Shown here piece by piece: positions 38,293 to 55,739 of a DNA stretch of 64,000 nt. The translations under genes were made by a program, and so were the position numbers. Below the pieces are notes generated by a model. The model was given only the letters and a program-made list of their open reading frames with translations, did not search any database and was not told the DNA's origin. The stretch lies in the NCBI RefSeq assembly GCF_054482525.1, contig NZ_CM137006.1; one strand, written 5' to 3'. Numbering within the stretch: position 1 is the first letter of the stretch; each line of letters starts with the position of its first letter.

Positions 38293-38356
38293 CGTTATTT
38301 TTATCGCACAAGGGTGGGCATCCCTGCCCGTAATGACGTCCCTGAACCTGGGTAGG

Positions 38357-38905
38357 TTATTGATACTGAACCTTGAAGGTCGCATCCGCATTAGCAGCAC
38401 CCGGGGTTGCAGCAGCGGTTGCAAAATAACGCGCCTGGAACGGAATGGTGTTAGTACCGTTATTCAGGGTTGTTTCTGCACTAAATGTCGCACCGTCCAG
38501 CGCCAGCGCAGCACCGGTTCTGTCCAGAATTTGCACACCAACGTTTGTTGCGCTACCTGCAGCAGAACTCTGCAGAGCCAGTACATCAGTATGCGTAGCA
38601 TCAATTGCCGTACCTAAGAAGGCAACAGCGGCTTTTGTGGCAACAGTGGTATCGCAATCATTCAGCTGAATGTTAAAACCAACAGCAGAGCTGGTTGCTC
38701 CAGCCTGCTTCAGGCTAGCGGTACGAACCTGTCCTAACTGAACGGTTTGATCAACAGAGCCTGCATCAACTGCGCAAGCGGCATTAACAACTTCCCCTTT
38801 AAAGTGAACGGTCCCACCATTTACCGTCGTAGTATCAGCCAGAGCCGCTGCGGAACTGAGGGACAGAGCCGACAAAACAACGATTGCCAGAGTTTTAATT
38901 TTCAT
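38357..38905 (-). CDS. fimA: type 1 fimbrial major subunit
   Basis: Track ORF to 39064 reads through the switch; true start [23 protein letters not shown] at 38905 (182 aa). Confidence 0.93.
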
Positions 38906-39023
38906 GCTGCTTTCCTTTAAAAAACTATTTCTAAATCGACATGGGCAGTCGTTCTGTACACTTTGTTTTGTCAACGAGTTTGACTGCCAACACTGCACAG
39001 TTTTCCCCCAAAAGATGAAACAT

Positions 39024-39337
39024 TTGGGGCCATTTTGACTCATAGAGGAAAGCATCGCGCACAAACTTTTTCAGTTTATTTGTTGGCTTGATATTCTACC
39101 GTTATCTTTATTTATAGATTTTTATATTGCATGAGGTGGTTTTTGGAGAGAAGAATGAGGAAGTTGCTTCGAGACACAGAAACGTTAGCTTTACATTTAG
39201 CGGAGGTGATGTGAAATTAATTTACAAGAGAAATAATTTACATATCAAACAGTTAGATGCTTTTTGTCGTTTTTTAATATTTTTATGCTTGAGAAAAAAT
39301 ACGTAACTTATTTATGATATGGACAGTTTGGCCCCAA
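39024..39337. promoter_or_regulatory. fimS: fimS invertible phase-variation switch (314 bp) bounded by 9-bp inverted repeats
   Basis: TTGGGGCCA at 39024-39032 and its reverse complement TGGCCCCAA at 39329-39337; spacing is exactly 314 bp, the known size of the fim switch. Confidence 0.85.
39289..39319 (+). promoter_or_regulatory. fimA sigma70 promoter inside fimS (-35 TTGAGA, 18-bp spacer, -10 TATGATA), here pointing away from fimA
   Basis: ttgaga at 39289-39294 and tatgata at 39313-39319 on the plus strand, i.e. directed toward fimE; promoter hexamers are as I recall them from the literature. Confidence 0.65.
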
Positions 39338-39384
39338 TTGTCTTGTATTTATTTGTTTTTTAACTTTATTATCAATGAGTTAAA

Positions 39385-39981
39385 TCAAACCTCTTCTCTT
39401 TTTAATTTTTCGTTTATGAGATTATTTCTTTCCCATAATCCGGCAAAACGAGCAGCATTACTGGCGGTATAACGCACAGTATGGCGAATATTTCGATGCC
39501 CGAGATAATCCTGAATTAAACGGGTATCGGCACCACGCTCCGCCAGTTCATAACCACAAGCATGCCTTAACATATGAGGATGAGTCTGCGTTACGGTTCC
39601 AGCTTCAATACCGGCATCGCGAATAATGCGATAGGCCTGCTGGCGAGAAAGCCGACTCCCGCGGCGAGAAATAAATATAGCGTCGGTCCGGTCAGCGCCT
39701 TTCCAGTTAGCACGTTCCTGGGTCCAGCGTTCCACGGCTTCACGCTCATCAAAACGTAACGGGTGAACGGTAGAAAATCCGTTCTTCAGTCGGCGAATAT
39801 TTATTCGACCTTCATTAAGGTCAAGGTCCTGATAATGCAGATCAAGCAGTTCACTAATACGCATCCCATGCCGATATGCCAACAGAATAAGACAATAATC
39901 TCTGGCTCCCGTTGCCCCGTAACAAACCGCCTGCATCATGGCCTGAACTTCTTTACCGGTAAGATAACGACGTTTACTCAC
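39385..39981 (-). CDS. fimE: tyrosine recombinase FimE (ON-to-OFF switching)
   Basis: 198-aa ORF MSKRRYLTGKEVQAMMQAVCYGATGARDYCLILLAYRHGMRISELLDLHYQD...HMLRHACGYELAERG...LGHRNIRHTVRYT. Confidence 0.93.
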   Translation of the reverse strand: MSKRRYLTGKEVQAMMQAVCYGATGARDYCLILLAYRHGMRISELLDLHYQDLDLNEGRINIRRLKNGFSTVHPLRFDEREAVERWTQERANWKGADRTDAIFISRRGSRLSRQQAYRIIRDAGIEAGTVTQTHPHMLRHACGYELAERGADTRLIQDYLGHRNIRHTVRYTASNAARFAGLWERNNLINEKLKREEV

Positions 39982-40459
39982 AATAGTAGTACTCCTAACT
40001 GAGATATATTTGAATGAATACCTATAGGAAACCTCAATCGGTCAAAATTAGCCCAATAGATAAAAAGATAACCACACACGAAGTGATGTGGCTATCAGTC
40101 AATTACATTAAATATCATACAAAAATAAAATATCACTGATGTGACAACATCTATTTTCATTGATTTGATTCAATATAACAATAGATTGCAGTGGATTAAC
40201 TTCCCAGTTGCTTAAAAAATAAAGAAAAAAGTATGAAAACAGGAGAATTTAAGTGATGTGTAAATTTATGAATGATTTTGTTTATTTATTTTGAAGAACA
40301 CAAACCATTGTATTTTGTATGGATATGGTTAACTTAATGTTTATTATGATAATTAAGAATCACACTTACAATAACATCAATTAATAAATGGTTAATCATT
40401 TTTGATATATCGTAAGAATAATGTGTTTTTTAACACCATCCCTGGTATCCCATCTATCT

Positions 40460-41062
40460 CTATAAAACAGCGTGACGCTGTCTCCCTCTAGCTCTATCCC
40501 AGATGCCGTAAAAACGCCCTGCATTGCTGGCGGTATACCAGACTGTATGACGAATATTGCGATGCCCAAGATAATCCTGGATAAGTCGCGTATCTATTCC
40601 CATATTCGCCAAAGCAAAACCACACGAATGGCGTAACATGTGCGGATGAATCTCCAGTGATAACCCAGCATTACCACCAGAAGTCGAGATAATATGGTAA
40701 AACTGTTGCCGAGAAAGCGGATTCCCCTTACGTGATAAAAATACCCACTCGCTCTCAGCATGCGGATACGAAGTACGGATACTCAACCAGTTTTTTAAAG
40801 CCTGAACTTCTTTGTTCAATAGCGGGTGCGTTGTTGAAAAGCCTTTTTTTAATCGATGGATATATATACACTTTGCCTTAAGATCAATATCCGAAATCCT
40901 CAATCGACAAATTTCACTCGCCCGGAAACCATGAATAAAACAAAGCAAAGTCAGACAATAATTACGTGCTGCATGAGGCCCGGTATTTGCTGCTTTAAGG
41001 AGTGACTCGATTTCACTATGGGTCAGGAAGTTCCTTTTTTTGTTATCAGCCTTATTCTTCAT
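40460..41062 (-). CDS. fimB: tyrosine recombinase FimB (bidirectional switching)
   Basis: Track ORF to 41092; MKNKADNKKRNFLTHSEIESLLKAANTGPHAARNYCLTLL... from ATG 41062 (200 aa). Confidence 0.93.
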   Translation of the reverse strand: MKNKADNKKRNFLTHSEIESLLKAANTGPHAARNYCLTLLCFIHGFRASEICRLRISDIDLKAKCIYIHRLKKGFSTTHPLLNKEVQALKNWLSIRTSYPHAESEWVFLSRKGNPLSRQQFYHIISTSGGNAGLSLEIHPHMLRHSCGFALANMGIDTRLIQDYLGHRNIRHTVWYTASNAGRFYGIWDRARGRQRHAVL

Positions 41063-42515
41063 CGTTTTTCCCTTATAATTACAGACGCGCACTAGCTGTG
41101 CTGGGTTAGCAATAATCCAACATTTTAATCCTGATTATGTTTATAAAAGCGAACGTTTGCTTAATAACTAACGTAAGTGGACCAGTTCTTCAGAGTGAAC
41201 TTAAATGGAGTGGCAACAGTTACTTATAATAACGTTGCCATACAAACGCTATGCTCCTGCATGCTATGTACCTTTATATATTTATCAATCTGATACGAAT
41301 CTAATAATAACCCTCATCATTAATGCAACTAATCTTATCTATATATCATGTGATATGTTCTGTAACAAGTAAAATCAACATAAAAAATTCAGCAAAATTT
41401 AATATTCGTTCAACTAGCCGTCTCACATATGACATTATTAGTCAACTCCATTTGCCACAAAATGGCTATTTCATGGAACGCAGTAATTTCTTAGTGGCTA
41501 TTATCATGCTAATGCTTAGGTCCCTAGCGATTATTCCTGGCTGGTTCGTCAGTTTAGGCCATGAGATTGTTACATTCCTTTTTATCATGGAGATATGGGG
41601 GAAAGCAGGAGACGATTTTTTCATCTACATTCGTTGATAAATATGGCTTTGGTCACTAAGACTTAAACCCTCCTCAATCACAGCTGTTCGCCGGGCAATA
41701 CGGCAAACAAACTAAGTGAAACATCATCCTGAAAACACCAACATCAACAAGCCTCTCCAGATCGACTTCAGGAGTGACCAGTTACAAGCCACAAATCAGG
41801 AAACATATTTCATGGTGAGAATTATGATCAGTCTGATGGCGGGTAAACCCTTATTTTCACCCCGCTCACTGAGTTAGCTTGCAAATCTTCCCTTGTTTAG
41901 ACTCTAGATAAATCTCATATAAAACAGGCAATTAAACAAAAACCTTTGGTTTGTGACGGCCTCCACAAATGTTCGTTTAGCTTCACATGGCATCTTCTTC
42001 TTAGAAAAAGATCGACATATTTTGTGACACGAATTGCAAATCTGGTTTTGTTGTATGGATTGCGTGATTTTTGATCTGGTATAACAGGTATAAAGGTGCA
42101 CCACGATAGTCAATGAGACAGGGCATCTCGCAATCTATGGCAAACATCACTTCAGTTCTTTCTCATCGGGTGATGAAAACGCACTTCAGTCTGAAAGGAA
42201 TATGAAAATGAGATCAACAGACACTCTATTTTATGACTCTGGGTAAAATGGATTGAGTAAGTGATATAGCTTACGAACATTCAAATCAATTAAACATCAG
42301 AAGAGATTTTATACTCAGGTATTTAATCTGGCTCTCTGTTTATTTAAATAATGTGGAAGAGAATTTTCACAGGAGACCTTATACAAAAAATATAAAATAC
42401 AGTTACCCGTTGCCAAAGACACTATAAGCCTGGCAAAAAATATTACACAACATAAATGCTAATTGTTTATGCGGGCTTTGTATTGCTTTCTGTATCCTAC
42501 AAATGAGTGAAATTT
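41063..42515. promoter_or_regulatory. long AT-rich fimB-nanC divergent intergenic regulatory region
   Basis: ~1.45 kb non-coding AT-rich DNA between divergent fimB and nanC; in K-12 this region carries the fimB and nanC promoters and NanR/NagC/IHF sites (established knowledge, individual sites not mapped here). Confidence 0.5.
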
Positions 42516-46271: not shown

Positions 46272-48005
46272 ATGGAAATCATGTTACCAAAAAACACCTT
46301 ATATGACAGAGAGCAAAATGTCTTTTTTGAAAAGGTTACGGCCTTAATTGGCGAAAATGGTGCTGGTAAGTCCTCGATTTTACAATCCGTATTTATTAAC
46401 TGTTTAACAAAAAAATATCTACCAGAAACAAAGGTTGTTTGTTTTTCTTCTGGACAAAATGAGAAATACTCAACGTACTTCTCTGATTATCTTTCTCATG
46501 AAAGGCAAGCAAATAGAGGTCTTAACTTAGATTGTTGTTATTACGATAAATCATGGTCAAAGTTACTAATATTCATATCCACAATTTGTAAATCAAATGG
46601 TCTTGTTAGAAATTTTTTATGTGAGAAAGGCTATATTGATGTATCAGATGATAAAAATGATGATATATCAAGCAAGCTTACATTGACGGTCCGAGTAAAT
46701 TCGGCTTACGTTAATCGAGTAAAAATGGCATTAGCACAAGAAGAACAAGGTATTGAAAATACTTTAAGGTATTCAGCTTATCATAGGACTTTAGAAAGTT
46801 TCATTAATAATATTGTTAATGCTGATTATGATTTCGAGTCTCCACTTGAAGCTCAAGAGATCTTGCTAACTCATTCAAATTTTTTCAATCCATCATTTGA
46901 GGAAGCAGAAGATTCCTTTTTTGATCCTATCATAACATTTTTCACTCAAGCAGCAGATAATGATTACTTTATAATAAAACCATCATTACAGCTAGAGTTT
47001 AAAAATAATATCGAACTGAATGATATTAGTGATGGGGAATATCAAGTACTCTTTTTATACTCTCTGCTTGATATTTTTGATAGTCCTAATACTTTATTCT
47101 TATTAGATGAGATAGATTCCCATTTACATTACAAGAATATTGAGCTCTTATGGCATCGACTACATAGTATTAATGGTTATGCGATAACAACCACCCATCT
47201 ATTAGACTCAATTACAGCTACTGATAATGATTTTAAAAACTTAAAGATTGTTGATAAAGGAAAAATAAAAGAAGATGATAAAATAAAAACTATAATAGAA
47301 CGTTTATCTGTCTTGACAAGAATATCAGACGTACAGTTCGAAGTGTGTCGTAAACTAGAAAACATAGTATTGATGGATGATTATAATGATTGGACTATTT
47401 TTTATGCCTTAGCAAAGAAAAAAGGACTTGATGTATCAAAGTTAGATGGCCTCCATGCAATAAAACAGTCCTCTGGTTACGATAATTTAAATCAAGAGTT
47501 CGCAAAACCAAAAATAGAGTGGATTAATTCGCTTTCAAATGTAAATACTGATAAGAAAGTCAAAAAAATATTCATGATCTGCGACAAAGATGAGGCTCCA
47601 ATTACCTATCAGAAAGATGGAGTTCAAGTCAATGGAAGTGAATATTCAAAACATATAGCGAAGTTAGAAAATAAAAACAAAAATAAAATATATCTCCTTG
47701 CTTGGAAAAGAAGAGAAATAAAAAACTACTTATTATCTTATACGGCATTGTCTCATCATGGATTTATCGGGCAAATAAACAATGGTGATCTGCCGGCTAA
47801 CAGTTATTTAAAAGAAAACAATCCTGGAGATAATTCAGCAATTAGCCGGCTTAATGTAAAACATTGCATCACAAAAATAATTGATTCTGATGGTATAGGA
47901 TTAGATATCTCAAAACTTTACTCATATATAGAACTTATACCACCTGCTGAGATCAGTGAAGATATAGTGAACATGTACAATTTTTTGGTGGAGAAATTAA
48001 AATGA
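46272..48005 (+). CDS. ABC/SMC-type ATPase (AAA_21/OLD-like) with a C-terminal ~240-aa putative nuclease-like (TOPRIM/DUF4435/RloB-like) domain
   Basis: 577-aa ORF in very AT-rich DNA; Walker A GENGAGKSS (aa 27-35), Q-loop FSSGQ, signature-like DISDGEYQVL, Walker B/H-loop LFLLDEIDSHLH; C-terminal region with acidic clusters (VLMDDYND, FMICDKDE) and LAWKRREIKNYLL motif; start M1 vs M4 uncertain. Confidence 0.8.
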   Translation: MEIMLPKNTLYDREQNVFFEKVTALIGENGAGKSSILQSVFINCLTKKYLPETKVVCFSSGQNEKYSTYFSDYLSHERQANRGLNLDCCYYDKSWSKLLIFISTICKSNGLVRNFLCEKGYIDVSDDKNDDISSKLTLTVRVNSAYVNRVKMALAQEEQGIENTLRYSAYHRTLESFINNIVNADYDFESPLEAQEILLTHSNFFNPSFEEAEDSFFDPIITFFTQAADNDYFIIKPSLQLEFKNNIELNDISDGEYQVLFLYSLLDIFDSPNTLFLLDEIDSHLHYKNIELLWHRLHSINGYAITTTHLLDSITATDNDFKNLKIVDKGKIKEDDKIKTIIERLSVLTRISDVQFEVCRKLENIVLMDDYNDWTIFYALAKKKGLDVSKLDGLHAIKQSSGYDNLNQEFAKPKIEWINSLSNVNTDKKVKKIFMICDKDEAPITYQKDGVQVNGSEYSKHIAKLENKNKNKIYLLAWKRREIKNYLLSYTALSHHGFIGQINNGDLPANSYLKENNPGDNSAISRLNVKHCITKIIDSDGIGLDISKLYSYIELIPPAEISEDIVNMYNFLVEKLK

Positions 48006-49909
48006 ACACCTCTTTATTTGAAGATCTACTTACACTAATCAAGAAAAAGAGTTCGATAAGAAATACAGAGCAAGCAGTAGAGTTAATTTCATTATTTATT
48101 TTTTTACATTATATAAAATTATATCTTTATGAAAATGATAAAAGATTTTCAGATATAAAAAACATATCAAGCAACAACATTAATGAAATTAAATATTATT
48201 ACCAGCAACTATATGAAAGTTTTATTTTCTCGATAGATATAAAAAATATAAACCACGACATGCTTGAAAACCTCAGGAGTAAGATAGGTTTTTTAATTAA
48301 TAACATCAATGACCATGAAATAATTAAATATATAGATTATTCTATTTCGCAGATACATTCACTTACAGAATTCCATCAATATGCAAATTCTTATCAATCT
48401 TTAATTCTTAGGATGGTTAATGAATCGGGTCGTTCAGGTGAATATGTTACTCCATCTGCTTTAGTTCAGCTCATGGTTGAAATGTTATCACCTACAGATG
48501 GCACATCAATCTACGACCCAGCATGTGGAACTGGGGGTTTATTAATAGAGTCAGCACGATATATTAAAGGCAACAGTTTAAACAAAAACTTAAATTTAAA
48601 TTATTCCCTTATTGGTAATGACACATCATCATTTGCCTGTCTAATCTCAATTGTTAACCTTTTAATCAATAAAGAATTTAATTTTGAAATAATACTAAAA
48701 GATAGCTTAGATATAAATTATAAGAATAAAAAATATGACTTTGTTTTAACTAACCCACCATTTGGGAAAAAGAGCTGTTGGGATAATATTCATATTGACA
48801 CACATTATAAAGGACCTAATCTAGACTATTACTTCCTGGAGCATGTTATTGACTCTCTCGCTGTTAATGGCAAAGCAGCCATGATATTACCAGAGCGTTT
48901 TTTATATGATGTGAGTGAAGAGTGCATCACTCTTAAAGATAAGATCTTCCAAAATTATAATTTAGATTGTATTTTATCTATACCGTCAGGTGCATTGCTT
49001 CCTTACACTGCAGTAAAATTATGTATTCTTTTTATAAGTAATTCTGGCCCAACAGATAGAATATTTTTCTACAATTTAAATAATGGTGAAAAATACTCAC
49101 GTACAAATATTATAAAATTCGATGATTTTATAGATTTTTTAGAGTCAGCAAAAAATAGAACAATAACTGAACACTCCTGGATTATCAATATTAGTGATAC
49201 ACCTTCATCTTATAACTTACTCTTAAAAGATAAAGAGCGAAACTCATATGAGTTTCTTAGTGATTCTATAGTTAACATTGAACAGACAATACGTAATAAT
49301 GAATTATTACTAACAGAGTTGTCTTTATTAAGAGAAAAAATAGCAATCTTAGAGTCAACAATAAAAAATCATTCGCATGAATATGAATTTGAGAGACTTA
49401 AAGTTGGAAATATTGCAATAGTAAAATCCGGAAATTTATTACAAAAAAACAGGCTGTTACCCACTGGACCAATTCCTGTATACGGTGGAAATGGAGTTAT
49501 TGGATATAATAATGAAGCAATGGAAAATGGTGAAAATATTATTATTGGTAAGGTCGGAGCTCTTTGCGGAAACGTTCGGTATGTTCAAGGTGATATTTGG
49601 GTGACAAATAACTCATTAATTATTAAGAATTATTCACCAAATAAAGTTTTAACACCCTACCTTGCAAAATTATTATCTACTTTAAACTTAAGAAGGCTCG
49701 CCGTTGGTACCGCTCAGCAATATTTAACCACGACACAAATAAAAAATGTAGAAGTTAGTATTCCACCTTTAACGACCCAGTATAAATTAAATATTTGGCT
49801 TGATGAGTTAGATAATACGCTTGAACAATATAATAATCTCATTGAAAAAATAATGAATGATAAGCGAGAACTTAAAGAGAATTTGTATAAAGGTCTTTTA
49901 ATAGAATAG
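48002..49909 (+). CDS. N6-adenine DNA methyltransferase (HsdM-like, gamma class) fused to a single HsdS-type target-recognition domain (M-S fusion)
   Basis: 635-aa ORF overlapping the upstream ATPase gene by 4 nt (ATGA); motif X/I GEYVTPSALVQLMVEMLSPTDGTSIYDPACGTGGLL, motif IV FVLTNPPFGKK, then a TRD with HsdS hallmarks (GNIAIVKSGN...IPVYGGNGVIGY...IPPLTTQYKLNIWLDELDNTLEQ). Confidence 0.85.
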   Translation: MNTSLFEDLLTLIKKKSSIRNTEQAVELISLFIFLHYIKLYLYENDKRFSDIKNISSNNINEIKYYYQQLYESFIFSIDIKNINHDMLENLRSKIGFLINNINDHEIIKYIDYSISQIHSLTEFHQYANSYQSLILRMVNESGRSGEYVTPSALVQLMVEMLSPTDGTSIYDPACGTGGLLIESARYIKGNSLNKNLNLNYSLIGNDTSSFACLISIVNLLINKEFNFEIILKDSLDINYKNKKYDFVLTNPPFGKKSCWDNIHIDTHYKGPNLDYYFLEHVIDSLAVNGKAAMILPERFLYDVSEECITLKDKIFQNYNLDCILSIPSGALLPYTAVKLCILFISNSGPTDRIFFYNLNNGEKYSRTNIIKFDDFIDFLESAKNRTITEHSWIINISDTPSSYNLLLKDKERNSYEFLSDSIVNIEQTIRNNELLLTELSLLREKIAILESTIKNHSHEYEFERLKVGNIAIVKSGNLLQKNRLLPTGPIPVYGGNGVIGYNNEAMENGENIIIGKVGALCGNVRYVQGDIWVTNNSLIIKNYSPNKVLTPYLAKLLSTLNLRRLAVGTAQQYLTTTQIKNVEVSIPPLTTQYKLNIWLDELDNTLEQYNNLIEKIMNDKRELKENLYKGLLIE

Positions 49910-49915
49910 ATCACA

Positions 49916-49946
49916 GTAGCAGGGTGTCCACAATACACCCTGCTAC
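49916..49946. terminator. hairpin between the convergent M-S methyltransferase gene and hsdR (putative bidirectional terminator)
   Basis: gtagcagggtgt-ccacaat-acaccctgctac: 12-bp perfect inverted repeat with 7-nt loop, 7 nt after the methyltransferase stop. Confidence 0.5.
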
Positions 49947-49989
49947 TGGTTGCAAGTAAGTTGCAATATCTGTACTGCTGAAGCTACGA

Positions 49990-52900
49990 TTAATAATGCT
50001 CCTCAATATACCCATACGCCTTCTGGAACAACTCTTTATCTTTCCCTAGTCCAAACTGGGCCAAGGTCAGCAAAAGCGCCTTTTGGATTTCGCGCGGGCC
50101 ACTGTTAGAATTTTGCCAGCCATCAAAGCGGGTAGCTTTCACAATTTTATCAATTTGCTCTACAACATCACCGATTAACTTAGGGGTAGTTTCCGGACGT
50201 GTTTCGAGGAAAAGCTTAGTCAACGCCTGTTTATTATCAGCTTCAGTTACTGGACGCTCGCCCGTTTCGCGCTCGGCTTGAACGGTATCTTTCGCTGCAT
50301 CCAACAGGCCTTTCAACCAGTCAATGGCCTTGATAACACCAGCTTCATAGTCCTGACGCAGTTTTTCAAGGCGCTCGCCCAATGCCACAAATTTAGGATC
50401 ATGACTGCCGCGCAAACGTCCCATAAGATCAATCTCCAGGCGTTTAGCACGTTGTTCCTGCTCTTTAGCGGTCAGGGTAAAAATAGCGTGCTCGTCCATG
50501 ACCAACTCGTCAATATCATCGCGAATACGATTGATATCAGTATGCTCATGGATCATCTTGATTGTTTCGGGGCCAAGGGCAGCCCAAACAAGCGCACCTG
50601 TCTGCCCTACCGGACGCACCGATTCATAAATTTGCGCCAGCCATTTATAGTCCTGACGATAAGGGGTCAAAAAAGGGTCTGGGTTGATAGCTGACCATAA
50701 CTTGGATAACACACCAAAGCTGGCAGCGAATTCATCGCGCTTCTCGTTGGTCGGCAGGCATTCCTGCGCGGCCATAATACCTTCAAAACCAGCTATGGAC
50801 CGATCCACACCAGGGAAGAAGGACAAACATTTATTCAGTTGTAACGGCAATAGCTCTTTAAATGCCTCAATTCCCTCTACAACTCCTTCAATTTCTTCAG
50901 GGTTATAGGCCAGAGCGGTACGCAGATTTTCGAAAACGCCGAGGTAGTCGATAATTAATCCCATGTCCTTGCGTACAGTATCGGTTTCGTACAGCCGGTT
51001 AGTTCGGCACATGGCCTGCAGAAGGGTATGATCGCGTAGAGGCTTATCGAGGTACATGCAGTAGCAAATCGGGGCATCAAAGCCCGTAAGCAGCTTGGCG
51101 GTTACGATAATAAGCTGTAATGGATATTCAGGATCTTTAAAGCACTCAATTAGATCCTTTTGCACCTGCTCTTCGGCATCGATGTGCTGCCAGCGTTCAA
51201 AATCGACTTGTTTGACAGGCAGCTCCAACTCATCATGCCATTTAAGCCAATCCTTGTTGAGCTTGTCTTTTTTGCCACCCTCTTCAACTTTAATCGGAGC
51301 CTGGTCAACGTTCATAACCACTTCAACTGCATCAAAACCAAGCTTTTCACCGAGCAAATAATACATCTGCACACAGGCTTCGCGATCGTATACCACAACC
51401 ATGCCTTTCATCTTTTTCGGCATAACATGGTTGGTAAAATGCTCAGCAATATCATTACTCACCGCAGCCATACGTCTGGGAGATTTCAGCATAATAGCCA
51501 GCTTGCCGGCACGTCTGGACAATGCTGCTTTTTCTTCTTCATCCAGGTTGTTTTCGGTAGCCAGTTGCTCGAACTCTTCATTGATGGCATCACGATCCAC
51601 TCGGAGTTCAGCCAGCCGAGGTTCGAACTTCACCGGGTTAGTTGCGCCATCCCGGATCGACTGCTTATAGCTATAGCGGCTCATATAGCGACCTGGATCT
51701 TCTTCGGCACCGAACAATTTGAACGTATTACGATCAATGCCAGAAATCGGAGTACCAGTCAGGCCATAGAAGTGGGCATTGGGCAACGCCCAGCGCATTT
51801 TCTCGCCTAATCCCCCTTCCTGTGTACGGTGAGCTTCGTCAACCAACACAATGATATTGTCCCGGTTGTTCAGGCCATTAGGGTTGCTATCGTCAATTTC
51901 GATATCTTTAAATTTAAAGATGGTGGTGATTAAAATGCCACGGCTGTCTTGTTCAATGTATTCACCCAACTTTTTGCAGCTTTGCACTTTAATCAGATTC
52001 TTAACGTCGGCTCCACCAAAGGTCTCGTTAATTTGGCTGTCCAGATCTCGCCGGTCCACAACGATAAGTACCGTCGGGTTTTTTAACGCATTATCGGCAC
52101 GTAGCATTTTGGCGGCGTAAAGCATCAACAAGGATTTACCCGATCCCTGGAAATGCCAAATAAGACCTTTTTTTGGATAGCCTCTGCGAACACGCTCAAC
52201 AATTTGTTTTGCAGCTTCAAATTGCGGATAACGCGGCAAGATTTTAACGCGTTTAGGTGGAGTATTTTTGCCCGTTTTGACGGTTGAAAATAATGCAAAA
52301 GATTCCAGTAACTGCAATAAGGTTTGCGGATTTAACAAACTCTCACAGCTATTGAGTACCGATGCCAGACCCGGCAAAATTTCATCACGAAGCTCAGTAT
52401 TATGCCAGGGTCCCCAGTCTTTAACTCGGGCATTAATGGCTCCATAGGCAAAGGTTTTACCTTCGCTGGCAAAGCACAGCAAGTTAGGTACAAAGAAAGA
52501 TTCAACATTTTTCCAGTAGTACTTTTTGCCACCCATGAAATCGGCAGCACCGTCTTGCCAGGTCACGCTGGGGCGTGTTGCGGTTTTAACTTCGCCTACT
52601 ACCAGTGGCATGCCGTTCACATAAAGAACAATATCAAAATAGACTTCAGTGGCCGCGATATAGTGAACCTGCTGCGCCACTACAAAGTGGTTGTTCTCTA
52701 TATTGTCAAAATCAATCAGATTGATGGTGATATGGTCGCCATTCTTACCAAAAGGCAAGGTTTTGTCGGCCATCAACCATTCCTGGAAGTTTTCATTGGC
52801 CTTTACCAAGCCGGTATGGCGGGCTTCTAAAACCACTCCTCGCAGTTTGTAAATGACCTCATCGGCATAGTCAGGCTGTCTGCCGATATCAGGGTTTAAC

Positions 52901-53052
52901 GAACAAAGCGCGTCTTTTAGCCACTCATCAACGAATATATCCTGCGCTTGTTTAGGCAGGTTTTCACCGTGGCAGTAAGTCCACTTGACTCCGCTTAAAC
53001 CTTTTAAACGGTCGATAATTCCATTTTCTGTGACGGTTTGTTCGTTAAACAT
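49990..53052 (-). CDS. hsdR: Type I restriction enzyme R subunit (DEAD/DEAH helicase-nuclease)
   Basis: Track ORF 49990..53070 begins at TTG; ATG six codons in (MFNEQTVTENGIIDRL...) has AAGGAAAT RBS; Walker A HFQGSGKSLLM, DEAH box VLVDEAHRTQ; ~1020 aa. Confidence 0.9.
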   Translation of the reverse strand: MFNEQTVTENGIIDRLKGLSGVKWTYCHGENLPKQAQDIFVDEWLKDALCSLNPDIGRQPDYADEVIYKLRGVVLEARHTGLVKANENFQEWLMADKTLPFGKNGDHITINLIDFDNIENNHFVVAQQVHYIAATEVYFDIVLYVNGMPLVVGEVKTATRPSVTWQDGAADFMGGKKYYWKNVESFFVPNLLCFASEGKTFAYGAINARVKDWGPWHNTELRDEILPGLASVLNSCESLLNPQTLLQLLESFALFSTVKTGKNTPPKRVKILPRYPQFEAAKQIVERVRRGYPKKGLIWHFQGSGKSLLMLYAAKMLRADNALKNPTVLIVVDRRDLDSQINETFGGADVKNLIKVQSCKKLGEYIEQDSRGILITTIFKFKDIEIDDSNPNGLNNRDNIIVLVDEAHRTQEGGLGEKMRWALPNAHFYGLTGTPISGIDRNTFKLFGAEEDPGRYMSRYSYKQSIRDGATNPVKFEPRLAELRVDRDAINEEFEQLATENNLDEEEKAALSRRAGKLAIMLKSPRRMAAVSNDIAEHFTNHVMPKKMKGMVVVYDREACVQMYYLLGEKLGFDAVEVVMNVDQAPIKVEEGGKKDKLNKDWLKWHDELELPVKQVDFERWQHIDAEEQVQKDLIECFKDPEYPLQLIIVTAKLLTGFDAPICYCMYLDKPLRDHTLLQAMCRTNRLYETDTVRKDMGLIIDYLGVFENLRTALAYNPEEIEGVVEGIEAFKELLPLQLNKCLSFFPGVDRSIAGFEGIMAAQECLPTNEKRDEFAASFGVLSKLWSAINPDPFLTPYRQDYKWLAQIYESVRPVGQTGALVWAALGPETIKMIHEHTDINRIRDDIDELVMDEHAIFTLTAKEQEQRAKRLEIDLMGRLRGSHDPKFVALGERLEKLRQDYEAGVIKAIDWLKGLLDAAKDTVQAERETGERPVTEADNKQALTKLFLETRPETTPKLIGDVVEQIDKIVKATRFDGWQNSNSGPREIQKALLLTLAQFGLGKDKELFQKAYGYIEEHY

Positions 53053-53053
53053 T

Positions 53054-54241
53054 TTATATTTCCTTATCAATCATAGCTTGGCGCAGTTGAATAATTTTCC
53101 CCAAGGATTCATTGTGCCTATAAATATTCTCATACGAACACTTAAACGTATTAATGATTGATGCTTGAATATCGAAGGGAGGAATAGGAATTTGAATTTT
53201 TAAAAAGTTATCTTTATTTATTTTCTTCATACTTCCGCTAGTTCCAGCAGCAATACCTTGAATAGCTCGACGGCCATATGGAGACATCAGATAGTACATT
53301 AAAAACTCTTTTTTAATAAATTTTTCGTCAACAGCCAATCTCCACATCGTGTCTGGGAAAATCGTATTCCCATTGCCAGTCGATCCTTTATATTTTCCAA
53401 CTAAACCAACCAACTCCGCTGTATTAGAACGAGAGATTAACAAATCACCATCATTGCATGTTTTTCCTTTTAAAAAATGATCTTCTGTAATATTTTTTAA
53501 AGTAGTTTCTCTGAATCCTGATTTCGACAAACTATTTAGGTTCAGGACATAGTACCCAGTCCCGACTGCGGTTTCAACAGGAGAATATCCCCCTTCTGGA
53601 GAATCAATTAAAACATCTTTAATAGAACCAAAAGTCCATCCAACCGGAAGAGGAACACATTTATTCTCCCTCGAATCAAAGTAGTTATCAAAAGTCCGTA
53701 GACCAATAGCATATAATAATCTTTTAGCTGCTTTGAGAGCACTTAAATATAGAAGTTCTTTCTTTGCTAACGAATCAAAGATTATTAATGACGAGTATTG
53801 CTGTTCAATGCTCGGTATATTAACTTCTAGTTTATTTAAATCACTCCATTTTATTCGCGATGATAGCGAGCCGGCGGAATTTGCAATCACCTTTTCCATA
53901 AAAGAGGTTGATTGCATCAAGTGGGGTAAGTACCCATCCAATAAGTAGTTGTTTTTCCTTGGTTTAATTACCATTGCATCAGCAGAGCAAATACCATTAA
54001 TAGGGCTCACCGACACCCTTTTTAAATATGTATTTCGTCTACTAAAAATTATTTCGCCACACTTTACCTTAAAGGCTTGTGTTTTCAATTCAACGTCAGC
54101 CCCCCAATCATGAACATAAAAATAACCAGATTTCAAATGTTCCAACCCAATAAAATGCTTAGCATCGTCGCTTGTTGGGGAGATTCTAACCATAACCTGT
54201 TCAGCAAGATCACCAAATGTAACATTTCTTTTATTATTCAT
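53054..54241 (-). CDS. hsdS: Type I restriction-modification specificity subunit (two target-recognition domains)
   Basis: Track ORF 53054..54292; probable start MNNKRNVTFGDLAEQ at 54241 overlapping the hsdM stop; two TRD halves with a central conserved region; the stop lies within ~15 nt of the hsdR start. Confidence 0.85.
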   Translation of the reverse strand: MNNKRNVTFGDLAEQVMVRISPTSDDAKHFIGLEHLKSGYFYVHDWGADVELKTQAFKVKCGEIIFSRRNTYLKRVSVSPINGICSADAMVIKPRKNNYLLDGYLPHLMQSTSFMEKVIANSAGSLSSRIKWSDLNKLEVNIPSIEQQYSSLIIFDSLAKKELLYLSALKAAKRLLYAIGLRTFDNYFDSRENKCVPLPVGWTFGSIKDVLIDSPEGGYSPVETAVGTGYYVLNLNSLSKSGFRETTLKNITEDHFLKGKTCNDGDLLISRSNTAELVGLVGKYKGSTGNGNTIFPDTMWRLAVDEKFIKKEFLMYYLMSPYGRRAIQGIAAGTSGSMKKINKDNFLKIQIPIPPFDIQASIINTFKCSYENIYRHNESLGKIIQLRQAMIDKEI

Positions 54242-55739
54242 TATTATATTTCTCTCTATCAATTTCATAGCCAATGCTATCCAAGCTATCAAACAATACC
54301 TTGATATTTCTTTTGAGTTTTACGCTACTGACTTTCCATGATTCGATAGCATGCTGAATATCATTCATTTTGACATTGTTTTGAGATTTCACATAAAGTG
54401 AAATCGATAAATTATAGAAATTTTCTTTAATAGCTTCGATATCCACTAAAGCGGTTATGTCGTTTTTTTTCTCCGGATTAAAATAAGCCTCGCATAATAC
54501 TTCCAAATCATCATCAGATAGGCGACTATGGGCACGTTCACGGGTAACATACTCAACCCCGTTGATAAACAAAACCTTATTTTTGCGTTCAGCAGGTTTA
54601 TTGCAATTAAGCACCACCAAGCAAGATTCCATCGGCGAGTTGTAAAACAGATTTGGTCCCAAACCAATCACCGCTTCGATTATGTCGGATTCAATCACCT
54701 GTTTACGAATGGCTTGTTCAGAATCACGGAACAGTACACCATGCGGCCAGAGCATGGCAGCACGACCGGTGTCGGGTTTTAAACTTTTGATTATATGGGT
54801 ATAAAACGCATAATCAGCACAACCTTGTGGAGGCACGCCATAGAGATTACGCCCATAGGGATCGGCTGCAAACTTGTCACGATTCCATTTCTTAATGGAG
54901 TATGGTGGGTTAGCAAAAATCACATCAAACTGCTTGAGCCGATCGTTTTCAATAAACTTTGGCTCAGCCAAAGTATCACCACGCAGCACATCAAACTCTT
55001 CAATATCATGCAGGAACATATTCATACGAGCAATAGCGGAAGTCAGCAGGTTCACTTCCTGACCATAAAGGTGCACAGAGCGCCACTCTTCTCCTCTTGC
55101 ACGAAGATCCATCACTGCATTTAGCAACATCCCTCCAGTGCCACACGTTGGATCATAGGCTGTTTCACCCGGTTTTAAGCCCATAATGCGCGTCATTAAA
55201 TGCACGACTGTTCGGTTGGTGTAGAACTCTGCTGCCGTATGACCGGAATCATCAGCGAACTTTTTAATCAGGTATTCGTAGGCCTCACCAAGATCATCCT
55301 GAGCGACAGATTTAATACCGAGCGGTATTTTACTGAAATGTTCAATCAGATCAGCCAGCAGATGATCGGGCAGGCGCTCTTTATTGGTCCACTGCGCATC
55401 ACCGAAGACGCCATGTAAACGCGGATTATTGGCTTCAATTAGTCGAAGCGCATTCTGGATCGCTTCACCAATGTTTTTACTGGTATTGCGTACCTTTTCC
55501 CAACTGGCTTCAGAGGGAATATTGAAACGGTGAAACATCGGCATGGCGGCATATTCAGCATCACCTTCATGGAGTTCCAGCGCTTCGTTATATTCTTCCA
55601 GATAGACATCTGACAGGCGTTTGTAAAACAGCAACGGGAAGATATACTGCTTGTAGTCTGATGCGTCAATTTGGCCACGAAGAAATTCGGCGGCTCCCCA
55701 GAGCAGCTCTTCCAGCTTTTTATTACTCATAGTACTCAT
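54234..55739 (-). CDS. hsdM: Type I restriction-modification N6-adenine methyltransferase subunit
   Basis: 501-aa ORF; HsdM N-domain (LEELLWGAAEFLRGQIDASDYKQYIFPLLFYKRLSD), motif I DPTCGTGGML, motif IV NPPYS; motif X reads AEFYTNRT rather than the usual GEFYTPR. Confidence 0.9.
   Translation of the reverse strand: MSTMSNKKLEELLWGAAEFLRGQIDASDYKQYIFPLLFYKRLSDVYLEEYNEALELHEGDAEYAAMPMFHRFNIPSEASWEKVRNTSKNIGEAIQNALRLIEANNPRLHGVFGDAQWTNKERLPDHLLADLIEHFSKIPLGIKSVAQDDLGEAYEYLIKKFADDSGHTAAEFYTNRTVVHLMTRIMGLKPGETAYDPTCGTGGMLLNAVMDLRARGEEWRSVHLYGQEVNLLTSAIARMNMFLHDIEEFDVLRGDTLAEPKFIENDRLKQFDVIFANPPYSIKKWNRDKFAADPYGRNLYGVPPQGCADYAFYTHIIKSLKPDTGRAAMLWPHGVLFRDSEQAIRKQVIESDIIEAVIGLGPNLFYNSPMESCLVVLNCNKPAERKNKVLFINGVEYVTRERAHSRLSDDDLEVLCEAYFNPEKKNDITALVDIEAIKENFYNLSISLYVKSQNNVKMNDIQHAIESWKVSSVKLKRNIKVLFDSLDSIGYEIDREKYNNE

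Follow-up and report, generated by a model that had tools for sequence, protein, structure and literature searches.

The type 1 fimbriae switch fimS of Escherichia coli, assembled in phase OFF

The fim switch (fimS) of Escherichia coli is a 314-bp segment that the tyrosine recombinases FimB and FimE flip by cutting and rejoining the DNA within 9-bp inverted repeats. The inversion sites consist of these repeats together with flanking half-sites, IHF and Lrp assist the reaction, and the recombinases have distinct directionalities, with FimB inverting the segment both ways and FimE acting chiefly in the ON-to-OFF direction; where FimE is active, most wild-type cells are OFF, i.e., afimbriate. The fimA promoter (PfimA) has been placed within fimS, at the end away from the repeat termed IRR in phase OFF. 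In the ON state, the fimE transcript runs through the switch into fimA, and in the OFF state only, a Rho-dependent terminator within fimS shortens and destabilises that transcript. By the established mechanism of this switch, the sigma-70 fimA promoter of an OFF element is located at the fimE-proximal end and points away from fimA, which leaves the fimbrial operon without a promoter, and inversion to OFF also puts the Rho-dependent terminator into the path of the fimE transcript.

Several described switches bear on the element in the window, by which we mean the whole 64,000-nucleotide stretch of DNA analysed here. The K-12 fimS (MG1655, NC_000913.3; the element of Abraham et al. 1985) shares with it the length of 314 bp, the repeats, the site between fimE and fimA, the OFF orientation, the promoter region, the repeat flanks, and both FimB and FimE; it differs by 10 substitutions within fimS, 12 of the 182 FimA residues (170 identical), 1 bp in the spacer between fimE and the repeat termed IRL, and small changes just upstream of the fimA start codon. 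E. coli C3 (NZ_CP010119.1) carries a phase-ON fimS with flanks and repeats identical to those of the window, whereas its element is reverse-complemented (matching the window's element, once that is inverted, at 307/314 positions), such that TTGAGA-18-TATGAT adjoins fimA and reads into it. Other E. coli switches of the same class, viz., hyxS with FimX and ipuS with IpuA/IpuB, likewise have a promoter segment inverted by tyrosine recombinases; however, they differ in locus, repeats, and target genes, and the window element is fimS proper rather than such a paralogous switch. Finally, fim switches locked in the OFF state have been described, namely the switch-region deletion of EHEC O157:H7, the fimB insertion of ST131, and, as reported, EPEC E2348/69. 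The window has the OFF orientation in common with these but lacks any deletion in the switch or disruption of a recombinase, and no sequence reason for locking was found in it. The locus described below is a textbook switch, found in the state that assemblies usually show.

Extent of the element and its place in the fim locus

The element, its repeats, and the flanking fim genes are as follows:

39024..39337, no strand: fimS, 314-bp invertible element in phase OFF (from the repeats, collinearity with MG1655, and three in-silico orientation assays)
39024..39032, plus strand: fimA-proximal 9-bp inverted repeat TTGGGGCCA, IRR in the K-12 fimB>fimE>fimA convention, with the same flank as in K-12
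39329..39337, plus strand: fimE-proximal 9-bp inverted repeat TGGCCCCAA, IRL, with the same adjoining sequence as in K-12
38357..38905, minus strand: fimA, major type 1 fimbrial subunit, 182 aa, cut off from its promoter in the OFF orientation (annotation in identical RefSeq genomes)
39385..39981, minus strand: fimE, tyrosine recombinase (ON-to-OFF), 198 aa, intact, 100% identical to K-12 FimE
40460..41062, minus strand: fimB, tyrosine recombinase (both directions), 200 aa, intact, 100% identical to K-12 FimB and annotated in SCU-102

The two repeats form a perfect pair, TGGCCCCAA being the exact reverse complement of TTGGGGCCA, and the 9-mer occurs just twice in the 64-kb window, the two copies spanning exactly 314 bp end to end. 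The preliminary description had proposed a 314-bp element delimited by inverted repeats, with fimA on the minus strand at lower coordinates; both statements hold, with 39024-39337 exact to the base and fimA at 38357-38905 (minus strand). The repeats alone are not statistically remarkable, as 14 of 100 shuffled versions of the window (dinucleotide content preserved) contained the 9-mer at least twice. Since the 9-mer and the promoter motifs are on their own near chance expectation, it is homology to MG1655 that shows what the element is. An alignment of the whole fimE-fimA intergenic region with its MG1655 counterpart runs from one end to the other at 98% column identity with no inversion, and the element itself is collinear with the MG1655 fimS at 304/314 identical positions and without indels; this homology also disposes of a chance inverted repeat as an explanation. 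The ten substitutions lie at positions 39060, 39090, 39099, 39100, 39120, 39164, 39168, 39174, 39197, and 39228, that is, all in the central and fimA-proximal part as assembled, with the promoter end and both repeat regions invariant.

The genomic setting is likewise that of fimS. The element sits between fimE and fimA with both recombinase genes adjacent, 118 bp separating IRR from the fimA ATG and 47 bp separating IRL from the fimE stop codon. The gene order on the minus strand is fimB-fimE-fimS-fimA-fimI-fimC-fimD, with fimF, fimG, and fimH beyond; as fimE and fimA flank the element, with fimB on one side and fimI through fimH on the other, the fim locus in the window is reversed with respect to the usual K-12 drawing. 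RefSeq genomes identical to the window name 39385-39981 the type 1 fimbria switch DNA invertase FimE, and fimB retains 5 TTG codons. Taken together, 39024-39337 is almost certainly the switch fimS that serves the fimAICDFGH operon for type 1 fimbriae in E. coli, present in this assembly in phase OFF.

Orientation of the switch: assembly, population, and genotype

Orientation was assessed by in-silico versions of published assays, none of them dependent on the promoter hexamers, run on the window as assembled and with 39024-39337 reverse-complemented. The sites concerned are:

39056..39059, no strand: BstUI site CGCG, a unique orientation marker near the fimA-proximal end as assembled
39300..39305, no strand: SnaBI site TACGTA, a second orientation marker inside the promoter spacer
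39289..39318, plus strand: PfimA candidate, -35 TTGAGA at 39289-39294, 18-bp spacer, -10 TATGAT at 39313-39318, matching the sigma-70 consensus at 10/12 positions

For the 726-bp OL4/OL20 amplicon cut with BstUI, the published fragments are 539+187 bp for OFF and 433+293 bp for ON (Conway et al. 2023; PMC9993118); the corresponding 726-bp amplicon of the window gives 187+539 bp as assembled and 433+293 bp once flipped, and MG1655, digested in silico in this way, likewise yields OFF-type fragments (540+188 bp). With SnaBI (published OFF 440+161 bp, ON 403+198 bp; PMC11724981), the fragments are 439+161 bp as assembled and 195+405 bp flipped, and with HinfI (published diagnostic band of 359 bp in OFF, 489 bp in ON; PMC4349694), they are 361+197 bp and 480+78 bp, respectively. 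The HinfI and SnaBI fragments are 1-9 bp off the published sizes, and strain differences are the likely cause of these offsets. The fourth test used a published probe for the promoter-distal end of the phase-OFF fimS, whose two primers converge, at a distance of 135 bp, only in the window as assembled, both falling on one strand after flipping; this result anchors PfimA to the fimE-proximal end in OFF. All four tests (BstUI, SnaBI, HinfI, and probe) therefore return OFF. The preliminary description had placed the promoter hexamers on the plus strand at the fimE-proximal end, reading toward fimE, and had concluded that the switch is in phase OFF and that the promoter cannot drive fimA. The hexamers indeed lie at 39289-39318 (plus strand), with the probe putting the promoter at the same end, and the orientation-specific digest that it had suggested as a check, here performed in silico, yields the published OFF fragments as assembled and the ON patterns after flipping, in support of that conclusion. 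As a practical point for orientation PCR on this lineage, the primer OL4 of the standard K-12 switch assay (38871-38890) has one mismatch to the window strain (GACAAAACAACG... versus GACAGAACAACG...), and the HinfI primers, designed on UTI89, have three mismatches each.

How this state compares with other isolates was assessed in a census of complete RefSeq E. coli genomes (n=5,426), using 128-bp queries that span each of the element's two junctions in either orientation. The 1,625-bp fimE-fimA stretch was found in 4,736 of the 5,426 genomes. At the fimE-side junction, the window's (OFF) orientation was recovered in 4,463 genomes and the flipped (ON) one in 248, and the fimA-side junction, scored independently, gave near-equal counts (4,464 and 247, respectively), i.e., ~95% OFF and ~5% ON among the ~4,711 complete genomes with the junction. 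The flipped class represents true phase ON, as a direct check of C3 revealed identical flanks, an inverted element, and the promoter beside fimA. The segment thus occurs in nature in both orientations between the same repeats, as befits fimS. The preliminary description spoke of a switch "captured" in the OFF state; the orientation stands, and the emphasis is to be tempered, for OFF is the default of ~95% of E. coli assemblies, including that of MG1655.

The identity of the element, its orientation as assembled, its intact repeats, and the intact recombinase genes are direct observations of this analysis. Beyond these, we infer a mixed source culture, an assembly that reflects the state of most of its cells, and a switch that works in this strain. 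Given the predominance of afimbriate cells in wild-type populations with active FimE, an OFF consensus is what an ordinary culture would be expected to produce. The OFF call might instead have arisen from the assembler, with the 314-bp inversion bubble of a half or mostly ON culture resolved arbitrarily as OFF. Invertible elements are typically heterogeneous in sequenced DNA, as noted in the paper on SVRE, which lends this some plausibility; however, FimE is intact here, in keeping with a mostly OFF population, and the ~95% of independent assemblies that are OFF fit a real majority state and not a coin-flip resolution, making an artefact of this kind highly unlikely.

A still less probable alternative, to which we assign a very slight chance, is that the switch is genetically locked OFF in the manner of EHEC O157:H7 or of lineages with an inactivated fimB, in which case the orientation would be a fixed genotype and not a snapshot. 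The OFF state of the assembly and the existence of such lineages in the literature would be consistent with locking, but the two 9-bp repeats match perfectly, the element keeps its length of 314 bp without insertions or deletions against K-12, the sequences adjoining the repeats are the same as in K-12, and FimB and FimE are full length and identical to their K-12 counterparts, while most assemblies are OFF in any case. A locking mutation is accordingly rejected on the strength of intact repeats, the lack of a deletion, and intact recombinases, this evidence covering the window, with the trans-acting IHF, Lrp, and leuX tRNA lying outside it. The assembled OFF state is best read as a snapshot of a population and not as a genotype, and it says nothing on the ability of the strain to make fimbriae. 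Where fimbriation is predicted or transcripts are mapped from this assembly, it should be borne in mind that the fim operon promoter sits on an invertible segment, and the census (~95% OFF and 5% ON in ~4,700 complete genomes with the junction) may serve as a reference figure.

The candidate fimA promoter

Within 38800-39500, TTGAGA-18-TATGAT is the best match to the sigma-70 consensus and the only strong one. A gap of 10 bp lies between its -10 hexamer and the repeat on the fimE side, and 256 bp separate the promoter from the repeat on the fimA side; because the motif is on the plus strand and both fimE and fimA are on the minus strand, the candidate points toward fimE and away from fimA. Its sequence is invariant between the window and K-12, and its place agrees with the end of phase-OFF fimS to which the literature assigns PfimA. 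A scan of the same region returned 2 promoter-like sites as against 2.1 in shuffles, which is chance level in AT-rich DNA, a weaker site (9/12) being on the minus strand at 39248-39219. No relevant paper emerged from a full-text search of the literature that paired the hexamers with fimA. TTGAGA and TATGAT are accordingly taken as candidate hexamers of PfimA, on the basis of the consensus scan, conservation, and the promoter reportedly described by Olsen & Klemm 1994.

The chance-level frequency of promoter-like matches and the presence of the 9/12 site on the minus strand leave room for a reading in which the hexamers are a fortuitous match, the true promoter sits either on the minus strand or at the end nearer fimA, and the element is really in phase ON. 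This reading has a practically negligible probability and is rejected: the three restriction assays and the probe give OFF as assembled and ON only after flipping, MG1655, which is collinear with the window, itself yields the OFF BstUI fragments, and a published study (PMC6458436) gives the UTI89 reference as OFF.

With the element in phase OFF, the promoter, whose -10 hexamer has its last base at 39318, lies ~60 bp from the stop codon of fimE (39385) and faces the 3' end of that convergent gene. This geometry raises the conjecture, to our minds a long shot, that the OFF-oriented PfimA might make an antisense RNA into the 3' end of fimE and thus help to lower FimE alongside the Rho-dependent terminator. 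The idea of antisense transcription into fimE was reportedly considered in the early literature on orientational control. A literature search on such control of fimE yielded a single modelling paper, without mechanistic detail, and a review consulted for antisense transcription held nothing relevant. A scan of 38800-39500 for intrinsic terminators found none, which is compatible with a Rho-dependent one and does not constitute a demonstration of it.

Neighboring sequences and the distal defence island

Several features of the fim locus and its surroundings merit description in their own right. In the mechanical list of open reading frames, fimA is stretched upstream to a TTG at 39064, producing a 235-aa frame (38357-39064, minus strand) that crosses the 9-bp repeat into fimS. 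The real start is the ATG at 38905, which gives the 182-aa protein, and the TTG-extended version is a trap for gene callers that is present only in the OFF orientation. Directly downstream of fimA, the MG1655 annotation has a 35-nt small RNA, FimR2, whose equivalent in the window would lie at ~38300-38356, between fimA and fimI; a scan of the entire window against Rfam (gathering thresholds) returned no family, FimR2 being without an Rfam-detectable counterpart. On the other side of the locus, the intergenic region between fimB and nanC (41063-42506) is unusually long (~1.4 kb) and AT-rich, with only short mechanical open reading frames, and is presumably the known regulatory region through which NanR and NagC control fimB.

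Beyond nanC, nanM, and nanS lies a defence island (46272-63113) with the following genes:

46272-48005, plus strand: AAA ATPase, AriA/PtuA-like
48002-49909, plus strand: fused N6-methylase/specificity protein, its gene overlapping that of the AAA ATPase
49990-53070, minus strand: hsdR of a type I restriction-modification (R-M) system
53054-54292, minus strand: hsdS of the type I R-M system
54234-55739 and 55736-57337, minus strand: two tandem hsdM paralogues of the type I R-M system
58481-59644, minus strand: PDC-S02 candidate defence protein
59598-63113, minus strand: homologue of MkoC (Mokosh), 1171 aa (PADLOC E = 0, 1692 bits)

SCU-102 is 100% identical to the window over fimE-fimA, and in that strain (38812-40829 of the compared locus), an HTH gene, an integrase, and a tRNA-Leu come after the R-M island. 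No tRNA genes were found in the whole 64-kb window, and its segment 57338-64000 has PDC-S02 and MkoC where SCU-102 has the HTH gene, the integrase, and the tRNA-Leu; thus, the distal content of the island differs between strains with identical fim regions. Elsewhere in the window, a 1746-aa open reading frame (15146-20386, plus strand) corresponds to the gene annotated as the inverse autotransporter IatD in SCU-102.
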